Of a DNA stretch of 64,000 nt, positions 50,098 through 51,729 are shown in pieces. The stretch's first letter is position 1. Each line of letters starts with the position of its first letter. The translations under genes were made by a program, and so were the position numbers. The DNA is from Candidatus Hadarchaeum sp. Lineage in GTDB: Archaea > Hadarchaeota > Hadarchaeia > Hadarchaeales > Hadarchaeaceae. The notes beneath the pieces are model-generated. The model saw only the letters and a list, made by a program, of their open reading frames with translations, was not told the DNA's origin and ran no database searches. The stretch is taken from the NCBI RefSeq assembly GCF_038871235.1, contig NZ_JAVZIN010000002.1, forward strand, positions 1 to 64,000, written 5' to 3'.

Positions 50098-50169
50098 TGG
50101 ACCCGGCGGGAATCGAACCCGCGACCTTCGGCTTGCAAAGCCGACGCTCTGCCTCTGAGCTACAGGCCC
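50098..50169 (-). tRNA. tRNA-Ala(UGC), CCA not encoded
   Basis: GGGCCTG...TCGGC-TTTGCAA-GCCGA...TTCGATT...CGGGTCCA; G3:U70 identity pair. Confidence 0.97.
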
Positions 50170-51729
50170 CACGAGGGTTCGGTACTCAAAACTTCAAAGG
50201 AGGTGATCGAGCCGCAGGTTCCCCTACGGCTACCTTGTTACGACTTAGCCCCTCTTGCAGAACTCGGATTCGACTCGCCCAACTAGAACGAGCCTCATCC
50301 GAACCCCACTCGAGTGGCTTGACGGGCGGTGTGTGCAAGGAGCAGGGACGTATTCACCGCGCGGTGTTGGCACGCGATTACTAGGGATTCCAGCTTCACG
50401 AGGGCGAGTTGCAGCCCTCGATCCGAACCGAGCGTAGGTTTAGGGGATTAGCTTCCTCTTACGAGGTTGCAACCCATTGTCCTACGCATTGTGACCCGCG
50501 TGTGGCCCAGGGGATTCGGGGCATACGGACCTACCGTCGCCCTCTCCTTCCTCTGGCTTAGCGCCAGCGGTCCCCTTAGAGTGCCCAGCTTTCCACTGGG
50601 GCAACTAAGGGCGAGGATCTCGCTCGTTGCCTGACTTGACAGGACGCCTCACGGTACGAGCTGACGATGGCCATGCACCACCTCTCAGCTAGTCCGGCAA
50701 GGTCGTCAGCCTGGCCTTCATCCAGCTGTCGCCCCTGGTGAGTTTTTCGGCGTTGAATCCGATTGAACCGCAGGTCCCACCCCTTGTGGTGCTCCCCCGC
50801 CAATTTCTTTAAGTTTCAGCCTTGCGACCGTACTTCCCAGGCGGCGGGCTTAACGACTTCTCTCCGGCACCTGGTGCTCTCGAGGAACACCAGACACCTG
50901 GCCCGCATACTTTACAGCTAGGACTACCGGGGTATCTAATCCCGTTCGCTCCCCTAGCCTTCGCCCCTCACCGTCAGGTCCGTTCTCGTCAAGCGCCTTC
51001 GCCACTGGTGGTCCCCCGAGGATCAGAGCATTTCACCGCTACCCCCGGAGTACCCTTGACGTCTCCCGGCCTCAAGGCTAGCAGTATCCCTTGCCAGCCG
51101 AACGGTTAGGCCGCCCGATTTCACAAGGGACTTGCTAGCCCGGCTACGAGCGCTTTAGGCCCAATAATCGCGACCACCACTTGGGCTGCGGGTATTACCG
51201 CGGCGGCTGGCACCCGACTTACCCAGCCCTTATTCGTGGAGCTTCTTACACTCCACAAAAGCCGTCGATCAAAAGACCAACGGCACTTGGGGTTCCCCCG
51301 TCACGCTTTCGCGCATTGCGGAGTTTTCGCGCCTGCTGCGCCCCGTAGGGCCTGGGGCCTTGTCTCAGTCCCCATCTCCGGGCTCCGACTCCCATCGCCC
51401 GTACCCGTTGTAGGTTTGGTGGTCCGTTACACCACCAACAGCCTGATAGGCCGCAGTCCTATCCTCGGGCCCCGGAGGATTTGAGTGAGGGGGCATTCCA
51501 GCGTCCCTCACCTATCGGGGATTGTCCTCAGTTTCCCGAGGTTATCCCCGTCCCGAGGGTAAGTTGACTACGTGTTACTGAGCCGTGTGCGGGGCCATCC
51601 CTTGCGGGACGCCCTCCACTCGCATGGCTTAGCCGAACCCCAATAGCGGTGGCCTCCGGCAGAATCAACCGGAGTTATTGTCGCAAAGCCAATGAAATTG
51701 GCTTGAGTACCGAACCTATCTCGGACCCG
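50163..51729 (-). other. Pre-16S processing stem with bulge-helix-bulge motif
   Basis: Leader CGGGTC-CGAG-ATA-GGTTCGGTACTCAA pairs with trailer TTGAGTACCGAACC-CTCG-TGG-GGCCTG. Confidence 0.85.
50198..51675 (-). rRNA. rrs: 16S rRNA
   Basis: 5' ACTCCGGTTGATTCTGCC, GTGCCAGCCGCCGCGGTAA, 3' GATCACCTCCT; about 1480 nt. Confidence 0.98.

Follow-up and report, generated by a model that had tools for sequence, protein, structure and literature searches.

Introduction

Bulge-helix-bulge (BHB) processing of archaeal precursor ribosomal RNA (pre-rRNA), with ligation of the cut spacers, was reportedly described by Tang et al. in 2002, together with a '16S-D' type of stable ligated leader-spacer RNA that is said to carry K-turn or C/D-like motifs. 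Other work treats EndA cleavage of pre-rRNA BHBs, circularisation, and spacer ligation as established (PMC7038931, PMC10351888, PMC10515664), with Methanococcus maripaludis as one archaeon in which BHB pre-rRNA processing is described (PMC10515664); further background is given in PMC7714728, PMC12918454, and the preprint 10.64898/2026.03.23.713588. According to the Haloferax study, 16S BHB processing precedes, and is required for, downstream maturation, the ligated leader and spacer stay on the nascent pre-23S RNA, and transfer RNA (tRNA) processing is rate-limited (PMC7038931). Here, we analysed a 64,000-nucleotide (nt) stretch of the hot-spring archaeon Candidatus (Ca.) Hadarchaeum sp. (contig NZ_JAVZIN010000002.1, positions 1 to 64,000; hereafter the window), which holds a single rRNA operon on the minus strand in the order 16S rRNA, tRNA-Ala(UGC), and 23S rRNA. 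The BHB that is predicted to release the 16S rRNA is built partly from the tRNA itself. We consider it likely that the operon uses a compact, Hadarchaeales-specific 16S processing stem, through which the leader becomes ligated to the first nucleotide of the tRNA (G1) and the tRNA matures after 16S release.

Results

The 16S processing stem and tRNA-Ala share nucleotides

The flanks of the 16S rRNA form a canonical BHB, with two 3-nt bulges on opposite strands and a 4-base-pair (bp) helix between them, in agreement with a preliminary description of this DNA that had named a CGAG/CTCG core and the bulges ATA and TGG (Table 1). The inner helix measured 15 bp, not the 14 bp given there. The outer helix consists, as had been proposed, of leader CGGGTC paired to tRNA nt 2–7; in the minimum-energy fold, five further pairs to nt 9–13 were added, and the helix takes up the 5′ strands of both the acceptor and the D stems. 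As the spacer between the 16S rRNA and the tRNA is 28 nt long, the outer helix is built from the leader and these tRNA strands. Cleavage after the second nucleotide of each bulge would fall, on the 3′ side, exactly at the tRNA 5′ end, where the preliminary description had also placed it. Since the same nucleotides pair in the BHB stem and in the tRNA acceptor stem, the two are mutually exclusive, and this earlier claim stands.

As a control, the 160-nt leader was shuffled 1000 times, and a BHB was counted at thresholds of at least 4 for the inner helix and at least 3 for the outer helix. The real stem had 21 paired flank positions, compared with 6.2 on average and 16 at most for the best strict BHB of a shuffled leader. 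None of the 1000 shuffled leaders reached 21 flank pairs, and we therefore concluded that the BHB is not due to chance. A BHB cut at tRNA +1 was obtained with one of the 1000.

Assembled RNA joins the leader to the tRNA

Reads or contigs of four runs were mapped to positions 50000–51900; two of the runs, X1 and X11, are two samples of one hot-spring study. Each of these two yielded one contig that joins 51718 directly to 50169 and skips exactly 1548 nt. On their shorter side, the joined contigs extend for 124 and 171 letters; not a single letter at the joint fits both sides. In the RNA sense, the leader ends in ...CGGGUCCGAGAU and is followed by tRNA G1. The joint has the position expected if each bulge is cut behind its second nucleotide and the outer fragments are then ligated. 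The predicted cut pair therefore matches the RNA joint in two runs, and the leader-tRNA ligation intermediate, which the preliminary description had mentioned as a possibility, is present in RNA contigs. The ligated RNA was assembled at a depth of 10–16 (15.6 in X1 and 9.6 in X11), and in neither run does any other contig contribute depth to the leader or the tRNA-23S spacer.

In these runs, with 236 and 215 million letters, the depth summed over the 16S rRNA rose to as much as 1.2 million, which indicates that X1 and X11 are, by content, rRNA-dominated RNA. Contigs matching the 16S rRNA exactly had a depth of approximately 315, compared with 15.6 for the flanks. Metagenomic DNA served as a control: among at least 120 metagenome-contig matches, the leader continues into the 16S rRNA in all 11 contigs with a Hadarchaeota-type leader, and none of these 11 carries a tRNA-joined leader among the matches listed. 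The other 109 matches listed were unrelated chance matches.

The arrangement recurs in Hadarchaeales

Among 60 relatives searched, 30 loci were obtained, 21 of which had both leader and spacer; extra regions were added for genera in which the operon is split by introns or contig ends. With a strict BHB defined by four paired core positions and 3-nt bulges, the 3′ cut fell exactly on nt 1 of the tRNA called by ARAGORN in 13 of the 21 loci, and this strict form at distance zero was found in 7 of the 11 Hadarchaeales genera with data. The eight remaining loci include four of genus g8, in which no tRNA is adjacent, and one from another phylum (L029). In the sole genome from another order of the phylum (L028), a canonical BHB precedes the tRNA by 19 nt.

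In genus g8 (L012, L013, L014, L017, and L093–L096), the operon is split: the 16S rRNA stands alone, with a run of T right after the inner helix, and an intron-containing tRNA-Ala(UGC) and the 23S flank lie 1.3–1.6 kb downstream of it. The CTCG core is lost there, while both leader elements described below are unchanged. The joint loss of the adjacent tRNA and the CTCG core fits a need for the tRNA strand in the BHB.

Covariation in relatives, which the preliminary description had named as a check, was evaluated on 14 distinct Hadarchaeales sequences. Two-sided (compensatory) changes occurred at 12 of the 14 inner-helix positions counted and at the first core pair, which is C-G in nine sequences, U-A in two, and mismatched in three. 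All six pairs of the outer helix are present in 14/14 sequences; its leader strand is invariant, and on the tRNA side nt 6 alone varies, being U or C and facing G. The GGGCT extension is paired in 12–14 of the 14, with one-sided A/G variation opposite U12. The support for the outer helix is therefore conservation and not covariation.

Two side observations were made on the relatives. The leader of L009/L079 fits its genus, and the spacer resembles that of another family (L021); this locus is possibly a chimeric assembly or a natural recombinant. On G023:C26, G041:C3, and G028:C8, the 16S rRNA matched in 2–4 pieces with a recurrent break near position 743–745 of the window 16S rRNA, which suggests rRNA introns in these relatives; the window 16S rRNA has no introns.

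The arrangement is confined to Hadarchaeota-type loci in the sets examined

Species-representative genomes were scanned for a 16S 3′ end followed within 15–45 nt by a similar tRNA-Ala start. This pattern scan returned 47 loci, 29 of them with a recoverable leader. A distance-zero BHB was found in 12 of the 29, all of Hadarchaeota type and many of the same species as in the set of relatives; L079, on the same contig as L009, showed a shifted register. The feature was absent from all 16 other scanned loci with a leader (13 DPANN-type archaeal and 3 bacterial). A short spacer as the cause of the coincidence was rejected, as spacers are similarly short in these DPANN-type and bacterial loci and none of the 16 has a BHB at the tRNA start. 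One of the 12 lies on a contig of a metagenome-assembled genome titled Actinomycetota (L056, JAPWVA010000101.1); this contig carries a Hadarchaeales operon with leader and spacer identical to those of L052/L055 and is probably a binning contaminant.

Three other archaeal phyla served as outgroups; a BHB cut at tRNA nt 1 was not found in them, and the sampling by name did not cover Thermococci, Archaeoglobi, Halobacteria, or Thermoplasmatota. The 28 loci of the first phylum have no spacer tRNAs. Spacer tRNA-Ala was present at 6 loci of the second, with four long-helix BHBs that precede the tRNA by 54, 55, 57, and 119 nt, and at 22 loci of the third, with long-helix BHBs 27, 27, and 38 nt upstream; the remaining BHB matches in the third phylum were short-helix noise, of which the nearest, at 13 nt, was weak.

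In the phylum of G057 (L029, L131, L132, and L133), a YGGGTCY 7-mer able to pair with tRNA-Ala nt 1–7 was noted in 4 of 7 distinct leaders; such complementarity also arose in 8–34% of shuffles per locus, and the BHB there lies far from the tRNA. The leaders of the G057 phylum hint that an acceptor-like leader helix may be older than Hadarchaeota. The complementarity count for the phylum of G058 was unusable, as ARAGORN placed the tRNA starts one position off.

A leader element can pair with the acceptor-like strand

Transcription would start approximately 25 nt downstream of a TATA-like box, near 51858, and TTAAGTA-type boxes lie at the same place in the leaders of relatives. Between this region and the BHB stem, the leader carries the heptamer GGATCCG, termed X (Table 1). 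In folds, X pairs with the leader's own CGGGTCC or, alternatively, with the 3′ acceptor strand of the tRNA. The variants of X in relatives (GGATCCG, GGACCCG, GGGCCCG, GGGCCTG, GGACCTG, and GGACCGG) keep 6–7 of 7 pairs with CGGGTCC, and in several genera X is the tRNA 5′ strand sequence itself. The CCRG...CYGG of the small leader hairpin is also kept in relatives. X persists in g8 in the absence of an adjacent tRNA, which indicates that the intra-leader helix has an independent life.

The preliminary description regarded leader CGGGTCC (51729–51723) as a mimic of the tRNA acceptor strand. The identity holds, covering tRNA nt 66–72, and the account was incomplete, since CGGGTCC also pairs with X and persists in g8. 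We attribute the identity to a double duty of this strand, which pairs with both the tRNA 5′ strand and X; the U of CGGGUCC is the only base that can pair both with A or G in X and with tRNA G3. Exceptions to the identity occur: L021/L043 have CAGGTCC as the tRNA strand, and L025/L026/L063/L080 have CGGGTCT as the leader strand. Pairing of X with the tRNA 3′ strand was rejected as a distinct finding. Because the leader and tRNA strands are identical, its 7 bp are indistinguishable from the intra-leader helix, and it remains a prediction of the energy model; a 4-bp extension of it, ATGT:ACAT, occurs in some genera only.

K-turn-like motifs and a conserved 5′ spacer fold have been reported in other archaea. 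Further conserved blocks were observed upstream in the leader (51790–51860, and L084–L098 in relatives), namely GGCGTCGAT, a GGGnC...GnCCC hairpin, CGATGAGA..ATCG, and GGTGTGGA; these might form structures of that kind.

Operon, genome context, and processing enzymes

The rRNA operon is the sole copy in the 1.2-megabase, 16-contig genome (94.75% complete), and its leader is also single-copy, as no second copy was found. The 16S-tRNA spacer is identical to that on contigs titled Ca. Hadarchaeum, including Ca. H. yellowstonense (L067). The tRNA-Ala(UGC) is intron-free, does not encode CCA, and folds into a cloverleaf with a TGC anticodon according to ARAGORN and Rfam; the G3:U70 pair, the identity rule of tRNA-Ala, was read from the sequence. 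Whole-genome ARAGORN analysis gave this gene (50169..50097) as the one UGC isoacceptor, and it must therefore mature from the rRNA transcript.

The same analysis called 22 tRNAs without the intron mode and 36 with it, among them an odd 'tRNA-Stop(tta)' at C6:45465-45561. Introns were called in 20 of the 36, some of them doubtful, including the CGC and GGC tRNA-Ala plus 17 further tRNAs, which indicates that the splicing machinery is heavily used. The genome encodes one EndA (a single PF01974 match of 115.5 bits in a 183-amino-acid frame), which we take from its size to be of the homotetrameric type. Homotetrameric EndA generally needs a strict BHB and both flanking helices. RtcB was identified by PF01139 (601.7 bits), and a full-length archaeal RNase P RNA by RF00373 (198 bits, positions 1–288 of 288). 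Maturation of the tRNA without RNase P, as suggested in the preliminary description, is thus disfavoured: full-length RNase P RNA is encoded, and the ligated leader-tRNA needs a 5′ endonuclease.

Duplex folding of the 23S flanks gave a continuous helix. A strict search found no canonical BHB at this 23S stem, and a relaxed search returned 3-of-4 cores only, beside the continuous helix. The tRNA 3′ end therefore belongs to no second BHB, and 23S release may differ from 16S release in Ca. Hadarchaeum sp.

Table 1. Features of the rRNA operon in the window, in the order of transcription
Feature	Position	Strand	Remarks
TATA-like box TTTAAGTA	51879..51886	minus	Read from the sequence; putative promoter
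Leader element ATGTGGATCCG	51765-51755	minus	Last 7 nt are X, GGATCCG, 51761-51755
Small leader hairpin CCAG-GCTA-CTGG	51737..51748	minus	Between X and X′ (leader CGGGTCC); from folds
Outer-helix extension, leader GGGCT	51734-51730	minus	Pairs with tRNA nt 9-13 (50161-50157), U8 bulged; minimum-energy fold
Outer helix, leader strand CGGGTC	51729-51724	minus	Pairs with tRNA nt 7-2
BHB core, 5′ strand CGAG	51723-51720	minus	
5′ bulge ATA	51719-51717	minus	Predicted cut 51718/51717
Predicted excised pre-16S RNA	51717..50170	minus	1548 nt; equals the length skipped by the RNA joint
Inner helix, 5′ strand	51716-51702	minus	15 nt
16S rRNA	51675..50198	minus	Rfam RF01959, 1520 bits
Inner helix, 3′ strand	50190-50176	minus	
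BHB core, 3′ strand CTCG	50175-50172	minus	
3′ bulge TGG	50171-50169	minus	Third nucleotide is tRNA G1; predicted cut 50170/50169
tRNA-Ala(UGC)	50169..50097 (ARAGORN); 50169..50098 (Rfam)	minus	Rfam 73.9 bits
Outer helix, tRNA strand GGCCTG	50168-50163	minus	tRNA nt 2-7
tRNA 3′ acceptor strand CGGGTCC	50104-50098	minus	tRNA nt 66-72; identical to leader 51729-51723
23S processing stem, 5′ strand	50005..50030	minus	Duplex fold; ~26-bp continuous helix with 46936-46911
23S rRNA	49995..46943	minus	Rfam
23S processing stem, 3′ strand	46911..46936	minus	Duplex fold

Discussion

Here, we propose a processing pathway in which the tRNA serves as the '3′ exon' of 16S excision. While the BHB stem stands, the tRNA would be unable to fold. 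The single EndA of homotetramer size would cut both bulges, and RtcB would circularise the pre-16S RNA and ligate the leader to the tRNA. The leader strand CGGGUCC would then leave the tRNA 5′ strand, probably re-pairing with GGAUCCG, which would let the acceptor stem form. Finally, RNase P would cut at G1, the bond earlier cut by EndA and resealed by RtcB, and free the mature tRNA-Ala, so that tRNA maturation would follow 16S release. An ordered switch that couples 16S excision to tRNA maturation, as put forward in the preliminary description, is plausible. The event order is the same in the Haloferax model, which supports the proposed pathway.

Several observations weigh against this pathway. 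The RNase P cleavage and the event order are inferred, not observed. The RNA evidence consists of assembled contigs of two runs from one study, and these runs are labelled 'RNA? (probably DNA)'. The joined contig of X1 stops at 51841, and that of X11 continues upstream past the presumed TATA box by 67 nt or more, which suggests read-through from upstream, a second promoter, or a trace of DNA. Raw reads of a size-fractionated RNA run, X21, gave zero depth on the leader, spacer, and tRNA, and run X22 gave nothing on the flanks. A circular pre-16S joint (50170 to 51717) was not among the 15 joints listed, a further 29 being unlisted, in contigs that drop rare forms. In the comparative data, the outer leader:tRNA helix shows no covariation of its own, and the coincidence of cut and tRNA start is not universal. 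At L019 (g13) the region can form a continuous helix; at L009 (G003, same genus) the register is shifted by one and the inner helix is poor; g15 keeps the spacing of core, 2 nt, and G1 with a C.A mismatch in the core; and g9 has 3 nt instead of 2 between the core and G1, where the cut would leave a 1-nt leader.

The predicted energetics also leave one step without an explanation. Fold energies were calculated at 37 °C by a nearest-neighbour model without tertiary structure or modifications and are indicative only. Before cleavage, the model gave −91.4 kcal/mol for a leader holding both acceptor strands and −81.9 kcal/mol for the intra-leader helix with a folded tRNA; after ligation, the corresponding values were −66.2 and −54.6 kcal/mol. 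The model thus favours the leader:tRNA hairpin over the folded tRNA even in the ligated form, so that release of the tRNA is unexplained, which is a further point against the pathway. These values suggest that the ligated leader-tRNA may persist, in keeping with its assembly. Tentatively, the chimera could be a paused state and not a transient intermediate, with GGAUCCG and CGGGUCC gripping both acceptor strands in a four-strand exchange and the bond open to EndA in the stem conformer or to RNase P in the tRNA conformer; such a state would act as a checkpoint tying the supply of the only tRNA-Ala(UGC) and the release of pre-23S RNA to 16S excision. We regard this extension of the pathway as doubtful.

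Other explanations of the joint were considered. EndA itself might make the mature 5′ end of tRNA-Ala, with a substantial unligated share maturing without RNase P (as 5′-OH or later phosphorylated) and the chimera as a side product. The cut lies at exactly +1 in both the model and the RNA joint; 7 of 11 genera combine the spacing of core, 2 nt, and G1 with a strict BHB, and g15 preserves this spacing despite its core mismatch; and folding predicts that the ligated RNA would make a poor substrate of the tRNA type. We nevertheless consider this explanation unlikely: full-length RNase P RNA is present, the ligated form is the only form assembled over the junction, RNase P would still be needed to remove the 1-nt leader of g9, and exons held together in a helix are the normal substrate of RtcB. 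Alternatively, two routes might compete for the same bond according to the conformer, with the EndA route as one branch; if the tRNA folded first, RNase P would cut and the 16S rRNA would mature uncircularised. An RNase P cut would be expected to leave a 3′-OH on the 16S trailer, which RtcB would not ligate. The conformers do exclude each other and differ by approximately 10 kcal/mol when tRNA tertiary structure is left out of the model, no circular pre-16S RNA was among the 15 joints listed, and g8 manages with neither the BHB nor an adjacent tRNA. Against such competition, the flanks in X1 and X11 occur solely as the EndA/RtcB joint, and transcription reaches the leader long before the 3′ half of the tRNA, which favours the stem; we find it quite improbable.

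Least credible to us is that the overlap is a neutral by-product of spacer shrinkage, without regulatory function, and the joined contig an artefact (a reverse-transcriptase jump over the stem or mis-assembly) or DNA lacking the 16S rRNA. The missing covariation of the outer helix, the sufficiency of the intra-leader helix to explain the leader motif, the label of the runs, and the upstream extension of the X11 contig would all agree with it. What makes it very unlikely is the joint itself, which lies at the canonical EndA position in both bulges, shares no letters, and recurs in two runs. Moreover, a 16S depth of up to 1.2 million is impossible for DNA in runs of that size, the joined form is found in 0/11 metagenome DNA contigs among the matches listed, the genome has no second leader copy, and a k=31 assembly should not be able to join on a 7-nt repeat. 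The proposed pathway, with ligation to G1 followed by tRNA maturation, therefore remains our preferred explanation.

Archaeal rRNA maturation is understood in broad terms, and for the coordination of 16S, spacer tRNA, and 23S processing, the Haloferax work only infers a rate-limited release of the tRNA. In Ca. Hadarchaeum sp., a coupling appears to be written into the sequence, with the tRNA supplying one half of the EndA substrate and a single site shared by EndA and RNase P. Hadarchaeota are uncultured, which is a practical limit; the event order and the conformational switch are testable with a small transcript and three recombinant enzymes. A full-text literature search found no published description of a BHB cut at a tRNA 5′ end; stems of Hadarchaeota or Thermococcales could appear in the supplementary figures of PMC12918454 and the preprint. 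We regard as new the zero distance between cut and tRNA, the tRNA as half of the EndA substrate, the leader-tRNA chimera, and the sharing of one phosphodiester bond by EndA and RNase P.

The locus has much in common with archaeal pre-rRNA processing as portrayed in the literature: a canonical 3-4-3 BHB within a long stem made by the 16S flanks, cleavage of each bulge behind its second nucleotide, a leader ligated to the downstream spacer, and a spacer tRNA-Ala for later release by RNase P and RNase Z. It differs in the distance from cut to tRNA, which is zero in Ca. Hadarchaeum and 27–119 nt in the outgroup operons examined, and, compared with known pre-rRNA stems, in that the 5′ strands of the tRNA acceptor and D stems form the outer helix and the product joins the leader to tRNA nt 1. 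RNase P-independent tRNA 5′ ends arise by leaderless transcription in Nanoarchaeum equitans, and protein-only HARP enzymes are also known. A tRNA 5′ end made without RNase P is conceivable here as well, but the RNase P RNA is present and the observed product keeps its leader. BHB tRNA splicing of introns, of the split tRNAs of N. equitans, and of permuted tRNAs (PMC3218864, PMC3491384) shares with this locus a BHB made partly of tRNA nucleotides, the use of EndA and RtcB, a complementary strand given by outside sequence, and tRNA folding that depends on splicing. Those reactions join two parts of a tRNA body, whereas the junction in Ca. Hadarchaeum lies between −1 and +1 of a contiguous tRNA gene. 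Here, the entire 16S rRNA takes the place of the 'intron', and a leader that has yet to be removed takes that of the upstream 'exon'. BHB 'exons' can thus be whole functional RNAs, and spacer tRNAs should therefore be considered when processing stems are predicted in compact archaeal operons.

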